Positions 40,273 through 59,748 of a DNA stretch of 64,000 bases are shown here, one piece after another. A program made the translations under genes and the position numbers. The DNA comes from a virus. Its lineage: Duplodnaviria; Heunggongvirae; Uroviricota; Caudoviricetes. The notes beneath the pieces were generated by a model. That model saw nothing but the letters and a program-made list of their open reading frames with translations, did not search any database and was not told where the DNA came from. Position 1 is the first letter of the stretch. Each line of letters begins with the position of its first letter. The stretch lies in IMG/VR virus record IMGVR_UViG_3300028805_000051, positions 107,394 to 171,393 of that record; one strand, 5' to 3'.

Positions 40273-40358
40273 AGGCGCGTGGTGTAATTGGTTAGCATAC
40301 GGCACTGTCACTGCCGCGGGAGCGTAAGCCATTGCGGGTTCGAATCCCGTCGTGCCTG
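40273..40358 (+). tRNA. tRNA with anticodon GUC (Asp) carrying a 17-nt variable region
   Basis: Anticodon arm cggca ctgtcac tgccg; T-arm gcggg ttcgaat cccgt; 86 nt. Confidence 0.55.
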
Positions 40359-40423
40359 CAAAGTGTTTTATATTGTTATTGGAGATAGGTAATGTATAAA
40401 AATTTTAAAACTAACAAAAAATT

Positions 40424-41113
40424 ATGAAGAAATTTACAAGTATTTTTATGGTTTTTGCATTAGCACTTTGTATGGTGTTTAGTGCATGTAATGGCTGCAG
40501 TCAGAAAAATGACTCTGCTAATGATTGTACTTATCCTGTTGCAGGATTAAATGTTGAGCGTGTCACTGCTACTGATTTTGAGTATATGACTGCTAACTAT
40601 GGCAATGACTATCGTTGGTATGAATGCTGCATTGATGCTAAAGATTGGATTGATGAAAGCGATACATTCTATGTCAATGGTATTGCCAATGTATTCTACA
40701 AAGTGTATCTCAATGAAGATAGCACATCTGGTACTGCCAAAGTGTATTTACTTACACATGCTGGTGATGCATTTACTATTGACTCAACAGAAGGTATTTG
40801 GGTTGGGGATGAACCTATGAATGATTATAACCCCATGACCATTGACTTCGCTCACGCTTATGATGCTATGATGATAACTAACTGTATAAAACCTCATAGT
40901 CGTCATTGTGTTCTTCGCAAGGAACTTGGTCCTCTCGATGCTGCTCCACAATATATCTTCGGTAACCAAGATTGCCAGGTTTATGTAGATGCTAAAACTG
41001 GTAAAGTAAATCTTGACAATCCTGTGTTTCCTGTAGATGCTAATGAGATTCCTGCAGATCGTTCCGAGAACGATAGCACACTCAAGAAACTTAACTACGT
41101 CTTCAATTGGTAA
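40424..41113 (+). CDS. lipoprotein
   Basis: Signal peptide with an FSAC lipobox. Confidence 0.5.
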   Translation: MKKFTSIFMVFALALCMVFSACNGCSQKNDSANDCTYPVAGLNVERVTATDFEYMTANYGNDYRWYECCIDAKDWIDESDTFYVNGIANVFYKVYLNEDSTSGTAKVYLLTHAGDAFTIDSTEGIWVGDEPMNDYNPMTIDFAHAYDAMMITNCIKPHSRHCVLRKELGPLDAAPQYIFGNQDCQVYVDAKTGKVNLDNPVFPVDANEIPADRSENDSTLKKLNYVFNW

Positions 41114-41233
41114 TTTTATAATTCTTCTAGCATTAAAGAATATATGTGGCTGCATCAAGTACAAGTGCCACACCTCGCTTAAGGAGGTTAATGAGTTCCC
41201 TAACTTATTTATAAAATAGACAGTAGGGACGAT

Positions 41234-41310
41234 CGGTACGTGTGCCCACTCGGGTTGGGAACTGGACTGTCACTCCAGTAAAATAGAGGGTTCGAATCCC
41301 TCCGTATCGG
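41234..41310 (+). tRNA. tRNA-Asp(GUC)
   Basis: Anticodon arm ctgga ctgtcac tccag; T-arm gaggg ttcgaat ccctc. Confidence 0.75.
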
Positions 41311-41331
41311 CTAATTTTACTATTAATACTT

Positions 41332-41417
41332 GTACCGCAGGCAGAGTTGGCTAATGCACCGGACTTTTAATCCGGAATCTCAATAGAGATAGCCGGGTTC
41401 GAATCCCGGGCGGTACA
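41332..41417 (+). tRNA. tRNA with anticodon UUU (Lys) carrying a 17-nt variable-arm hairpin
   Basis: Anticodon arm ccgga cttttaa tccgg; variable region aatctcaatagagatag; T-arm ccggg ttcgaat cccgg. Confidence 0.6.
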
Positions 41418-41517
41418 CAAGTTATCTTTTTCTATTTAAACCATAAATAATTTTGAATATTGAATAATTCGAGTTATTATTAAATAACTTGAGGTTCAAA
41501 ATTTAAAATTATTTATT

Positions 41518-42111
41518 ATGTCTAAATGGGATTCTGAAAAAGAAAATTTGAGAAAAGCAATAGAAGAAGATAAGATAAGTTATGAAGAATTAGGTAGAAG
41601 ATATGGTTGTTCTGGAGCAAATATTAAAAAAGTTGCTATAAGACTTGGAATTAGTATTGAAACTCGGAGAAAAGTAAATGAAAGTGAACACTTTAATAAA
41701 GGGACTGGAATAAAAAGGTATTGTCTAAATTGTGGTGCAGAATTAAAAAGATCTGCTAAAAAATATTGCTCTTTTGATTGTGAACATGCTTATCTTCAAA
41801 AAGAATGGGAAGAAAAGTATAAAACAGACAATAGTATAGCAAAAACAAATAGTTGGGGACAAATACCAGCAGCATTAAGAACATATATATTTAAAAAATA
41901 TGAATATAAATGTTGTCAATGTGGGTGGTCAGAAATAAATCCTTATACTAATACAATTCCTTTAGAAATTGACCATATTAATGGTAATTCTAATGATAAT
42001 TCTGAAGAGAATTTAAGATTACTTTGTCCTAATTGTCATTCCTTAACATCTACTTATAGAGGTGCTAATAGAGGTAATGGTAGAAATATTACTTGGATAA
42101 TAAAATCTTAA
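41518..42111 (+). mobile_element. HNH homing-endonuclease gene
   Basis: C-terminal segment CPNCHSLTSTYRGANRGNGRN plus Cys pairs; sits within the tRNA island. Confidence 0.6.
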
Positions 42112-42122
42112 AGATAATTTTA

Positions 42123-42169
42123 CTCCTATAGTTTAGTGGTAAAGCGTGGGTTCGAATCCCACCGGATAC
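42123..42169 (+). ncRNA. tRNA-like fragment (D-arm-like plus T-arm; no anticodon arm)
   Basis: tagtttagtggtaaag then tggg ttcgaat ccca. Confidence 0.25.
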
Positions 42170-42181
42170 ACAAATCTATTT

Positions 42182-42321
42182 GCTCCTATAGCTCAATTGG
42201 TTAGAGCACTTGACTGTATACTGGGTAGTTCCAGAGAGAGACTTAATTCAAGGATATGTTAGAAGTGATTTTAACATATTCACTAATCAAGGGGTTCTAG
42301 GTTCAAGTCCTAGTGGGAGCG
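42182..42321 (+). tRNA. tRNA gene interrupted by an insertion of about 66 nt in or next to the anticodon loop, or an oversize variable arm
   Basis: Canonical acceptor gctccta/tgggagc, D-arm gctc aattggtta gagc and T-arm ctagg ttcaagt cctag. The anticodon stem cttga is followed by ctgta, and two candidate tcaag partners lie 34 and 75 nt downstream. Confidence 0.45.
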
Positions 42322-58031: not shown

Positions 58032-58201
58032 GGAACATAAGATAGGTACAATATTAAGATAGACTTAATCTAGAAAAGTATGCAATAAAATATACCAAAG
58101 GACTTGCTAGTGGAGTACAGCTGCTTCTTTAAAAGTTTTCTAGAGCTGAAGGCTGTAAATTCTATCAAGATATTGTTCTGGTTCGAATCCAGAATGTTCC
58201 A
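58032..58201 (+). tRNA. tRNA-like gene in which the 5-prime acceptor/D region and the T-arm/3-prime acceptor are separated by about 130 nt
   Basis: ggaacat at 58032 pairs with atgttcc at 58194; T-arm tctgg ttcgaat ccaga; D-arm gata ggtacaa tatt. Confidence 0.35.
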
Positions 58202-58428
58202 CACAAATTTTAAATAAATTAATTGACAAACATAATTTTAATTTGGAAATAAAACAACAAGCTAATCCTAAAAGGAAAACTTATAAATTTACTTTAGATG
58301 AAGTCAATGCAAAAAGAAAAGAATGTAATTCTTGGGAAGAAGTTGCCAATTTTTATAAAATGAGTTTATCAACATTAAAAAGACATAAGAAAGATCTAGA
58401 AAATCTTACTTTAATAAATTAAGATAAT

Positions 58429-58499
58429 GCCTCCATCGTTCAACGGAAGGACATAGCTCTTCTAAAGCTATTATGTAGGTTCGAATCCTACTGGGGGTA
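58429..58499 (+). tRNA. tRNA-Arg(UCU)
   Basis: Anticodon loop CTTCTAA. Confidence 0.8.
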
Positions 58500-58654
58500 C
58501 TAATTATGGACGATATTTTAATAATTAACACAAAGGAACAACTTGATAGATACTTAAAAAAGTATAACTGTCAAACAATAGAAGAATTAGATGAAGTTCT
58601 CTGGTATGATTATGGAGTAACACTTAAGAATAATATTAAACCAGGTAAAAGGTT

Positions 58655-58936
58655 ATGACATCTGAAGTACATATGCTTTTAATGAATGCTTACAAAAAAT
58701 CAGACACATTTTATAATCATGGTGGTTATGTACCAAAATATATATCACTATCTTTATTAAATGTAAAAGAAGTGTTTAATAAAGTTAAAGAACATTATGT
58801 AAGTGATAAAAGTTATGAAGTAACAGAAGATACTCCTACCACATTTGAATTTAATGATGGTAAATGGATTTTTAGATATAAGATATATACCGGACCTTTA
58901 AACCAAATAATTAATTATTCAGACTTTGAAGAATGA
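58655..58936 (+). CDS. hypothetical protein
   Basis: ORF track entry. Confidence 0.35.
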   Translation: MTSEVHMLLMNAYKKSDTFYNHGGYVPKYISLSLLNVKEVFNKVKEHYVSDKSYEVTEDTPTTFEFNDGKWIFRYKIYTGPLNQIINYSDFEE

Positions 58937-59072
58937 AAAGATTTCAAATTCACAATGTTAATACTAATAAAGTAGTATTCGAGTCTAATGATCATATGGA
59001 ATGTTCTATTAAATTAGAAGAATACAAACAAAAATTTACAGATAATTTTGAAATAATTGATACTCAAAAGAA

Positions 59073-59438
59073 ATGATTAATTTTATTATACTTTATTTTG
59101 CGAATCTAATTCTAGATTATCCATTACAAGGTACATTTTTAGCAAACTTTAAATCGAAAAATAATTATATTCTTTTTGTACATTGTGCAATATGGGCATT
59201 AGGTATTTCTATTGTTCTTCTACCATTAGGTTTATTTGCTTGGTGGAAAGTCATAATGTTATTAGTGGGACATTTTATAATTGATTATTGGAAATGTCAT
59301 CGTTTATACATTAAAAAGAATATTGATGAAAATCAAATTCCTAGAAATAGTGGAGAACCTACAAAAGCAGATTTTAATGCACTTTACATTGATCAAGGTT
59401 TACATGTACTGCAAATTTTAGTATGTCTAGTGAATTAA
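59073..59438 (+). CDS. membrane protein
   Basis: ORF track entry; 3 hydrophobic helices. Confidence 0.4.
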   Translation: MINFIILYFANLILDYPLQGTFLANFKSKNNYILFVHCAIWALGISIVLLPLGLFAWWKVIMLLVGHFIIDYWKCHRLYIKKNIDENQIPRNSGEPTKADFNALYIDQGLHVLQILVCLVN

Positions 59439-59454
59439 AAATATTATAAGATAT

Positions 59455-59528
59455 GACCCGTTCGTCTAGTGGTCCAGGACACCAGATTTTCATTCTGGGA
59501 ATCATCAGTTCGAATCTGATACGGGTTA
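59455..59528 (+). tRNA. tRNA-Glu(UUC)
   Basis: Anticodon loop TTTTCAT. Confidence 0.8.
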
Positions 59529-59587
59529 CTCTCTTGTTAACATGAGACGTTTGTAATTTCAATGATATCTAAGGAATTATAGACGTA

Positions 59588-59659
59588 AGTTGCTTAGCTC
59601 AGTTGGGAGAGCGGCAGGCAGAAACCTGGCGGTCATTGGTTCGAGTCCAATAGCAACTA
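59588..59659 (+). tRNA. tRNA with an irregular anticodon arm (4-bp stem with a 6-nt loop CAGAAA, or a mispaired 5-bp stem with A33); identity unclear
   Basis: Perfect acceptor agttgct/agcaact; D-arm gctc agttggga gagc; T-arm attgg ttcgagt ccaat. Confidence 0.5.
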
Positions 59660-59663
59660 CTAT

Positions 59664-59748
59664 GACACAGTGCCCGAGTGGTTGAAGGGAGTGGTCTGCA
59701 AAACCATTAGAAGAAATTCTCACGTAAGTTCGAATCTTACCTGTGTCA
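59664..59748 (+). tRNA. class-II-architecture tRNA with anticodon GCA (Cys anticodon on a Ser/Leu-like body)
   Basis: Anticodon arm gtggt ctgcaaa accat; variable-arm hairpin agaa gaaa ttct; T-arm gtaag ttcgaat cttac; acceptor gacacag/ctgtgtc. Confidence 0.55.

Follow-up and report, generated by a model that had tools for sequence, protein, structure and literature searches.

Long variable arms on phage tRNAs with Asp, Lys, Met and Cys anticodons, and a possible role against anticodon-arm nucleases

Textbook accounts of bacteria confine long variable arms to the transfer RNAs (tRNAs) for Ser, Leu, Tyr and selenocysteine (Sec). Outside these four, nematode nev-tRNAs, class II in form, have Gly or Ile anticodons but derive from tRNA-Leu, are charged with Leu and mistranslate (Hamashima et al. 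2012, PMC3333845), and allo-tRNAs and selC*-type tRNA-Cys combine 8/4 or 9/3 stems with a Ser or Sec-like identity (Mukai et al. 2017, PMC5389517; review PMC7609411). Phages also encode tRNAs that resist tRNA-cleaving defences: T5 tRNA-Lys, tRNA-Thr and tRNA-Asn resist PARIS (PMC12409363) and a phage tRNA-Thr resists P2-OLD (PMC12445682), and the described resistance lies in point changes of the anticodon stem-loop, including mycobacteriophage loop variants, or in a shortened stem (PMC12409363, PMC12445682, PMC10264068). Here we analyse a 64,000-nucleotide (nt) stretch of a Caudoviricetes virus (IMG/VR record IMGVR_UViG_3300028805_000051, positions 107,394 to 171,393), which we call the window. 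From its letters alone, an original prediction had picked out four tRNAs with anticodons that normally belong to short-variable-loop (class I) tRNAs, Asp GUC, Lys UUU, CAU and GCA, each apparently carrying a hairpin in the variable region, and had offered altered identity, resistance to tRNA-targeting defences or recognition by a phage factor as explanations.

Four long-arm tRNA genes

We searched the whole window with ARAGORN and with the Rfam RF00005 covariance model (gathering score 29). The two independent methods agreed that all four genes have long variable arms on class-I anticodons, confirming the observation. ARAGORN found 27 tRNA genes in the window, the four among them (Table 1), and all four aligned to the full RF00005 model (1-71) with a 7-base-pair (bp) acceptor stem and a 5-bp T stem, at E values of at most 2e-7 for the whole window. 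In the covariance-model alignments GUC, UUU, CAU and GCA occupy positions 34-36, and the 13-16 additional nt are inserted in the variable region, after the anticodon stem and before the T stem. After parsing, the variable regions of the Asp and Lys tRNAs came to 17 nt each, that of the CAU tRNA to 19 nt and that of the GCA tRNA to 16 nt. Class II tRNAs have a variable region of at least 10 nt that forms a hairpin; all four regions are longer than this, with 4-6 bp in the Lys, CAU and GCA tRNAs and a weak hairpin of 2-3 bp in the Asp tRNA, in which GC/GC closes a GUAA tetraloop and an additional G:C pair forms across a bulged A. At 13:22, the Lys and GCA tRNAs have G13.A22, whereas Asp (U13.G22) and CAU (A13:U22) both keep a 4-bp D stem. 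The long-arm Asp tRNA has a T arm resembling that of ordinary tRNA-Asp, and the ordinary Asp tRNA predicted to lie next to it is indeed there; the window also holds a second, elongator-type CAU tRNA of ordinary length. The long-arm Lys and GCA tRNAs are the sole ones of their kind in the window.

Three other readings of these genes were ruled out. Proper folding could have moved the anticodons and given conventional Ser, Leu or Tyr identities, as the original prediction had allowed; Infernal and ARAGORN gave the same anticodons, which stayed at positions 34-36. An intron is ruled out by the place of the insertion, in the variable region rather than the anticodon loop, and by the conserved hairpin. 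Allo-tRNA-like or tRNA-Sec-like folds are ruled out by the stems, which are 7/5 in all four tRNAs and not 8/4, 9/3, 8/5 or 9/4.

Spread in phages and conservation of the arm

Going beyond the original prediction, we found that long-arm class-I tRNAs are widespread in phages. We scanned viral contigs for an anticodon loop, a 20-32-nt gap and a T loop, and confirmed the matches with ARAGORN; the Asp scan was complete (39 matches), and counts and closest homologs for Lys, CAU and GCA are those among the matches listed. These scans yielded at least 97 long-arm Lys(UUU), at least 100 CAU and at least 71 GCA tRNAs, and 18 long-arm Asp(GUC) tRNAs. The flanks of these loci hold more, with Asn, Thr(UGU), Ile(UAU), Trp, Lys(CUU), Val(UAC), Glu, His and other anticodons. 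A roughly unbiased viral sample was also drawn, for which a generic T loop and CCA were the sole anchors; 23/481 of its class-I tRNAs (4.8%) were long, and 17 of its 106 loci held at least one.

Each of the four window tRNAs has viral homologs. The CAU tRNA is 99% identical to L275:5029-5117 and about 80% identical to tRNAs in at least five further contigs; the GCA tRNA is closest to L275:4598-4683 (85%), L348 (84%) and L315:517-602 (83%), and the Lys tRNA to one in L101 (78%). A related 99-kilobase (kb) viral contig, L004, carries both a long GCA tRNA and a long CAU tRNA with the same U1xU72 mismatch as in the window. The closest Asp homolog (84%, L191:3018-3105) differs by compensatory changes in its acceptor and anticodon stems; the variable sequence of the window tRNA is conserved in it, but with a GCAA loop.

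Cultured phages carry such tRNAs too. Rhodobacter phage RcXuper has a tRNA-Lys(ttt) and a tRNA-Lys(ctt) of 88 nt each, annotated as plain tRNA-Lys, and the phiKZ-like Pseudomonas phage PA1C has an 87-nt tRNA-Asn, annotated as plain tRNA-Asn, with the arm U-GGC-GAAA-GCC-CAUC. These examples were found with a commoner long-Lys sequence as query; with the window's own CAU and Lys tRNAs as BLAST queries, cultured phages yielded only a normal-length tRNA-Met (Phage Phass-1) and partial tRNA-Ser matches. Cellular genomes gave a different picture when searched with the same Lys pattern, at one genome per bacterial and archaeal species: 11 long Lys tRNAs came from 120 cellular matches, against 97 from 119 viral matches, a viral enrichment over background matches of roughly 40-fold, both figures being among the matches listed. 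Four of the 11 cellular ones lay within arrays of 10-16 tRNAs per 8 kb that resemble phage DNA. Separately, near-identical single long-arm tRNA-Lys(UUU) genes occur on three genome contigs (L500:5179-5263, L514:2977-3061 and L515:1157-1243), the first a 360-kb Actinomycetota contig; these may be cellular or prophage-borne copies. Long-arm class-I phage tRNAs are apparently undescribed so far: we found no description of them in the literature, in a search that subscription journals lay largely outside, so that an earlier description is possible.

The arm is a real helix under selection, with a core adapted to it. Twelve members of the CAU family were aligned and scored for the cloverleaf together with the variable-arm helix: 90.4% of cells were paired against 72.3% in shuffles, a value reached by 0 of 500 shuffles, and the covariation score was 0.50 against 0.15 when shuffled and at most 0.12 with partners slid; four of the six variable-arm pairs showed changes on both sides. 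Arm lengths differ in the GCA family, which made MAFFT columns unusable for arm counts, and its arms were therefore parsed sequence by sequence. Seven complementary stems emerged among the GCA homologs (AGAA/UUCU, UGAA/UUCA, UGGG/CCCA, AGC/GCU, GAG/CUC, GGA/UCC and UCUC/GAGA), mostly under GAAA or AAAU loops. Variable regions in every family fold far better than shuffled ones (for Lys, -2.77 versus -0.65 kcal/mol), and a GNRA loop caps about half of the Lys and Cys arms. The core shifts in the long versions as well, from a Watson-Crick pair at 13:22 to G.A, A.A or U.U and from A9 to G9 or another base, which is the class II core.

The typical phage class-I long arm has one unpaired nt, 3-4 bp, a GNRA loop and a 3-4-nt tail (CAUC, CAC or CAUU). 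Ser arms have 5-7 bp, a GNRA loop in 64/154 and a 1-nt tail; Leu arms mostly 3-5 bp, a GNRA loop in 60/143 and a GU tail; Tyr arms 3 bp, rarely a GNRA loop, and a UUC tail. Of the window arms, those of the GCA and Asp tRNAs follow the typical phage class-I layout; the other two, Lys with 5 bp and a 2-nt tail and CAU with 6 bp and a 1-nt tail, are nearer to Leu/Ser geometry. A further variant was seen in phage tRNA-Ile(UAU), about one-third of which have a 20-25-nt variable region with a recurring CAGAUUA loop (for example L076:11562-11656 and L099:10774-10865), a sub-family set apart from the GNRA-type arms.

Amino acid identity and possible role of the arm

We re-derived discriminator bases from genomic context and compared long-arm tRNAs with short tRNAs of the same anticodon. 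Discriminator and 1:72 pair of the long-arm tRNAs matched those of their short counterparts and not those of Ser, Leu or Tyr tRNAs: U73 in 74/76 long Cys, G73 in 14/17 long Asp, G73 in 24/28 long Asn, G73 in 10/10 long Trp (with A1:U72 in 7/10), C73 in 5/5 long His, U73 in 15/19 long Thr, A73 in 69/90 long Lys (U73 in 20/90) and A73 in 9/10 long Glu (with G1.U72 in 7/10). Because the long families keep the cognate discriminator and 1:72 pair, mis-sense decoding is unlikely as a general explanation, and the altered identity of the original prediction is left as a possibility for the GCA tRNA only.

The window tRNAs were also compared by body, with anticodon and arm removed and the 25 nearest neighbours considered. 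Ordinary Asp tRNAs made up 14/25 neighbours of the Asp body and Met (CAU) tRNAs 19/25 of the CAU body; Lys and Ser neighbours tied for the Lys body, and for the GCA body tRNA-Ser(UGA) accounted for 14/25 against 5/25 for Cys. For the GCA tRNA, originally predicted to have a Ser/Leu-like body, the body is thus closest to tRNA-Ser, and the class-II-type D arm is present. Escherichia coli aspartyl-tRNA synthetase reads G73, G34-U35-C36, C38 and G10, and lysyl-tRNA synthetase reads U34-U35-U36 and A73; each set is present in full in the respective long-arm tRNA, and we predict charging with Asp very probably for the first and with Lys probably for the second. None of the four has a complete tRNA-Ser identity (a 5-7-bp variable stem, about one unpaired 3' nt and G73). 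The GCA tRNA has 4 bp, a 3-nt tail and A73, and the Lys tRNA 5 bp, a 2-nt tail and A73; the Asp tRNA has a weak stem and a 3-4-nt tail, its G73 being also the Asp discriminator; and the CAU tRNA has Ser-like geometry (6 bp, 1-nt tail) but A73, a 1x72 mismatch and A11:U24.

The CAU tRNA resembles an initiator. Formylation of the bacterial initiator depends on the lack of a Watson-Crick 1:72 pair and on G2:C71, C3:G70 and A73, all of which it has. The 1:72 mismatch noted in the original prediction is U1xU72, and the tRNA further has G4:C69, A11:U24, A29:U41, G30:C40 and U31.G39. Within its family, 1:72 is unpaired in 11/12 members, A11:U24 occurs in 12/12, C3:G70 and G4:C69 are invariant, and G2:C71 occurs in 11/12, with G.U in one. 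Of the three anticodon-stem G:C pairs (29:41, 30:40 and 31:39), the window tRNA has only G30:C40, which is also the sole invariant one in the family, with a conserved U31.G39 wobble beside it. Among long CAU tRNAs with a 1x72 mismatch, G30:C40 was present in 47/47 and all three pairs in 13/47. On these nucleotides, charging as formylmethionine (fMet) is likely. Short phage CAU tRNAs with the same initiator-like features (1x72, G2:C71 and C3:G70; the long and short set spans L199-L314 and others) have all three pairs in 5/37; across long and short forms G30:C40 is almost never lost.

The GCA tRNA is the least certain of the four. Cysteinyl-tRNA synthetase recognizes the GCA anticodon together with U73, its major determinant, and this tRNA has A73, as do the long GCA tRNAs of L275 and L315 and a short one of L020. 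One explanation is that at least this tRNA is a substrate of tyrosyl-tRNA synthetase, or of a synthetase indifferent to the anticodon, and inserts Ser, Leu or Tyr at Cys codons. The rarity and recurrence of A73, the Ser(UGA)-like body and the A73 of the window's own tRNA-Ser(UGA) speak for this, and nev-tRNAs, with Gly or Ile anticodons but charged with Leu, are a precedent (PMC3333845). The arm, however, with 4 bp and a 3-nt tail, is unlike Ser or Leu arms, the tRNA shares 77-84% identity with Cys-family members that have U73, and the other three window tRNAs carry cognate identity elements. The suggested check for substitutions at Cys codons also came out negative in the window: UGY codons of the HNH endonuclease gene fall at eight zinc-finger positions, where aligned homologs have Cys in 6/6 to 27/27 at seven and in 8/12 at the remaining one. 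Elsewhere no systematic replacement was visible, so the Cys code is taken to be standard. We therefore consider mis-sense decoding very unlikely, and charging of the GCA tRNA with Cys is, on balance, the favoured prediction. That A73 GCA tRNAs, kept in at least two other phages, are charged with Ser, Tyr or Leu and serve a deliberate statistical recoding of cysteine during infection would be a striking variant, which we regard as highly improbable. As a separate observation, phage Ser discriminators are unusually variable: long phage Ser(UGA) tRNAs have U73 in 15/65 and A73 in 3/65, the usual base being G73.

We propose that the arm shields these tRNAs from nucleases that act on the anticodon arm. 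Each tRNA would be charged according to its anticodon, with Asp, Lys, Met (of the formylated initiator type) and probably Cys, because the synthetases for these amino acids recognize their tRNAs chiefly by anticodon and discriminator base. Codon demand speaks for this reading, with AAA at 59 and GAU at 46 per 1000 codons. The added hairpin would be a built-in structural element, with the rest of the core apparently adapted in the Lys and GCA tRNAs. Projecting from positions 44-48, beside the 3' strand of the anticodon stem, it would alter the shape of the tRNA and block nucleases that grip the anticodon arm, such as those of the PARIS AriB, P2-OLD, Schlafen, PrrC and VapC types. Function as a tRNA should be retained, because arms of this kind are already accommodated, on natural Ser, Leu and Tyr tRNAs, by ribosome and synthetases alike.

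The anticodons on which long arms occur bear on this proposal. We counted them in the flanks of loci chosen for a different long-arm tRNA, where long forms made up 12/37 of Ile UAU, 20/75 of Thr UGU, 12/50 of Cys GCA, 29/128 of Asn GUU, 11/79 of Trp, 16/124 of Met CAU and 10/81 of Lys CUU tRNAs, with 1/96 for Phe and none for Ala (0/79), Gly GCC (0/58), Arg ACG (0/51) or Gln CUG (0/37). Frequencies differed even between anticodons served by the same synthetase: Thr GGU was long in only 1/41, in contrast to Thr UGU (p=8e-4), and Ile GAU in 4/91, in contrast to Ile UAU (p=6e-5). Known nucleases target an overlapping set. PARIS AriB cleaves Lys UUU, Thr UGU and Asn GUU tRNAs between positions 40 and 41 (PMC12409363), P2-OLD cleaves both anticodon-stem strands of Thr UGU, Lys UUU, Asn GUU and Val UAC (PMC12445682), the bacterial Schlafen RorSlfn5 cleaves Lys UUU and Met CAU (PMC13056530), PrrC cleaves Lys tRNA (PMC11555353) and VapC-LT2 targets tRNA-fMet (PMC10264068). 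The arm leaves the body at 44-48, a few nt from the cited cleavage sites and on the same strand. We favour shielding because of the phage enrichment, the anticodon-specific frequencies, the overlap with nuclease targets and the closeness of the arm to the cleavage sites. Tentatively, then, the best explanation is that these are cognately charged tRNAs of a phage-enriched design whose arm would most likely protect them from nucleases; resistance to tRNA-targeting defences, as listed in the original prediction, is plausible.

The arm could instead be a functionless legacy of recombination with, or remoulding from, class II genes in the same tRNA arrays, tolerated by synthetases that read the anticodon and merely kept folded by selection. 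The D arm and anticodon stem of the Lys tRNA match phage tRNA-Ser genes at 89% identity over 36 nt, and Ser tRNAs are numerous among the body-only neighbours of the Lys and GCA tRNAs. Lys, Asn, Asp and Met tRNAs repeatedly show the same arm layout and CAUC/CAUU tails, suggesting exchange of 3' halves, and many enriched anticodons would be one mutation away from a class II anticodon. A mere legacy fits poorly, however, with the strong enrichment in phages over cells, with frequencies that depend on the anticodon within one synthetase, with Asp and CAU bodies that are clearly cognate class-I bodies to which an arm has been added, and with the persistence of the design and its co-adapted core across very divergent phages. 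We consider this origin without function unlikely.

Several observations weigh against shielding of cognately charged tRNAs. Ile UAU, Cys GCA and Trp CCA, among the most enriched anticodons, lie outside the cited nuclease targets, and long Asp tRNAs are rare (4/104 in the flanks, 0/20 in the roughly unbiased sample). The Lys tRNA has A8 (position 41339) in place of the near-universal U8, which its relatives have, and the GCA tRNA lacks the U73 of tRNA-Cys. The Lys and CAU arms fall within the range of Leu/Ser arm geometry, and some mischarging is possible. Conservation of the hairpin could merely reflect an inherited insertion being kept folded. Long arms are also about 3-3.6 times commoner on tRNAs with A36 or U36 than on those with C36 or G36 (128/982 versus 40/989, p=4e-13), a bias that natural class II tRNAs share and that may point to a reason in decoding or modification.

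That last bias also speaks for a different role, in which the arm would stabilize folding or tune decoding of weak codons starting with A or U when tRNAs are made fast and under-modified at position 37. In addition, the window has about 30% GC and makes heavy use of AAA, AAU, AUA and ACA codons. Yet the bias was weaker and not significant in the roughly unbiased sample (14/242 versus 7/232, p=0.18), and Thr UGU and Thr GGU, both with U36, are tenfold apart. We know of no mechanism that ties the variable arm to decoding, and we strongly doubt this explanation.

Recognition by a phage factor, the last of the suggestions in the original prediction, would make the arm a tag by which a binding, modifying, repair or quality-control protein tells phage from host tRNAs, for instance during destruction of the host's own. 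Candidate factors are encoded in the array itself, namely a YqeY-like tRNA-binding protein directly after the CAU tRNA and a DUF2828/DUF7788 protein, and the CAWAA loop of the CAU family and the Asp variable arm are conserved in sequence. Against this, a YqeY homolog was present in only 1/431 collected viral loci with long-arm tRNAs, most DUF2828 loci have no long-arm tRNA nearby, and arm sequences vary widely among families; we find a tag improbable.

The tRNA array and comparison with known systems

The four genes are part of a plus-strand array that holds about 27 tRNA genes at roughly 38.6-63 kb of the window, with small open reading frames (ORFs) in between. They are best read as functional phage tRNA genes in a tRNA array of about 25 kb belonging to a large, low-GC phage. 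Megablast of 24 kb of the window against GenBank phages gave no close DNA relative, and in blastn of the window against all collected loci mainly the tRNA genes and the DUF2828 gene aligned, with a few short stretches besides.

Table 1. Long-arm tRNA genes, their variable regions and other features of the window
Feature	Position	Strand	Details
tRNA-Asp(GUC), long variable arm	40273..40358	+	ARAGORN tRNA-Asp(gtc) 40273-40359; Rfam 53.2 bits; G73, G10.U25, C38
Asp variable region CGGGAGCGUAAGCCAUU	40317..40333	+	weak GUAA (GNRA) hairpin, 3' AUU tail
tRNA-Lys(UUU), long variable arm	41332..41417	+	ARAGORN tRNA-Lys(ttt) 41332-41418; Rfam 54.0 bits; A73, class-II-type D arm (G13.A22)
Lys variable arm	41376..41392	+	A-AUCUC-AAUA-GAGAU-AG, 5 bp (parse)
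Initiator-like tRNA(CAU), long variable arm	49531..49618	+	ARAGORN tRNA-Met(cat) 49531-49619; Rfam 48.7 bits
CAU variable arm	49575..49593	+	A-CUAUCC-CAAAA-GGAUAG-C, 6 bp, conserved CAWAA loop (parse)
tRNA(GCA), long variable arm	59664..59748	+	ARAGORN tRNA-Cys(gca) 59664-59749; Rfam 58.4 bits; class II D arm (3 bp + G13.A22), A73
GCA variable arm	59708..59723	+	U-AGAA-GAAA-UUCU-CAC, 4 bp, GNRA loop, 3-nt tail (parse)
Second tRNA-Asp(GUC), ordinary length (comparator)	41234..41310	+	38.6 bits; 7-nt variable loop
Second tRNA(CAU), ordinary length (comparator)	53790..53863	+	ARAGORN, Rfam, parse; G1:C72 paired, elongator-type
tRNA-Ser(UGA)	47313..47403	+	A73 instead of the usual G73
CUA suppressor-type tRNA	30117..30188	-	
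HNH endonuclease ORF	41518..42111	+	between tRNA genes
tRNA-fragment-like stretch	~42123..42170		D-arm-like part joined to T arm
tRNA-like gene with insert	42182..42321	+	Rfam 56.5 bits; 66-69-nt insert
tRNA-like gene with insert	62374..62494	+	Rfam 51 bits
tRNA-like gene with insert	54499..54651	+	
tRNA-like gene with insert	37844..38539	+	
tRNA-like gene with insert	38632..38720	+	
DUF2828/DUF7788 protein	43444..44757	+	inside array; PHROG 850 'RNA-binding protein'
YqeY-like ORF	49863..50303	+	GatB C-terminal tail type, tRNA-binding domain; Pfam PF09424, E=1e-31
Transposase-like ORF	51684..52481	+	in array; PHROG 10081, E=5e-75

Several other features of the window stand on their own. Relatives of the DUF2828 protein occur on viral contigs of up to 554 kb, so the source of the window is probably a large phage; several of these relatives adjoin tRNA genes, and a sequence search of the PDB for a solved structure of the protein gave nothing significant. 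The HNH ORF, together with a tRNA-fragment-like stretch just 5' of an insert-bearing tRNA, suggests homing-endonuclease activity in the array. Five tRNA-like genes have inserts in or near the anticodon loop, and the intron mode of ARAGORN proposes inserts of 80 nt, 611 nt and 13 nt; Rfam found no intron family in these genes, and most inserts are too short for group I introns. A CUA suppressor-type tRNA lies outside the array, and when TAG is taken as a sense codon, the stop-free coding of the minus-strand block 1-22000 roughly doubles, which makes TAG recoding likely in part of the genome.

These tRNAs extend the class II architecture to Lys, Asp, Cys and initiator-type tRNAs here and to Asn, Thr, Trp, Ile, His and other tRNAs elsewhere. 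Long arms mark about 5% of sampled class-I phage tRNAs, including those of cultured phages such as a phiKZ-like jumbo phage, and are rare in cellular genomes. Were the arm to protect, it would be a new strategy against tRNA-cleaving immunity, one that is easy to test, and a portable design for nuclease-resistant or orthogonal tRNAs. Were it not protective, several synthetases, the formylase and the ribosome would still tolerate a class II arm on class I identities, which is useful for tRNA engineering and for annotation pipelines.

With canonical class II tRNAs (Ser, Leu, Tyr and Sec), the window tRNAs share the 7/5 cloverleaf and a variable hairpin of at least 10 nt; Lys and GCA further share a D stem of 3 bp with G13.A22. 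Arms of this kind are thus familiar to elongation factors as well as to the ribosome. The window tRNAs differ in their Asp, Lys, Met and Cys anticodons, in identity nucleotides that follow the anticodon across phage families, and in the typical phage arm of 3-4 bp with a GNRA loop and a 3-4-nt CAUC/CAC tail. Allo-tRNAs and selC*-type tRNAs likewise combine long arms with varied anticodons, come from metagenomes and in some cases from phages, but the window tRNAs have 7/5 stems. The nearest precedent is the nev-tRNA, whose class I anticodon goes with a long variable arm; unlike nev-tRNAs, the phage families keep the identity nucleotides of the anticodon and two of the four window bodies are clearly cognate, so that only the A73 GCA tRNA could compare. 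The nuclease-resistant phage tRNAs, which replace tRNAs destroyed by host immune nucleases with copies from the phage, overlap in anticodon with the long-arm set (Lys UUU, Thr UGU, Asn GUU, Val UAC and Met CAU); the variable arm, through which protection would act here, is not mentioned in PMC12409363, PMC12445682 or PMC10264068. Finally, the CAU tRNA is like bacterial tRNA-fMet in its 1x72 mismatch, G2:C71, C3:G70, G4:C69, A73 and A11:U24, and differs from it in having a long arm, only G30:C40 of the three G:C pairs and a conserved U31.G39.

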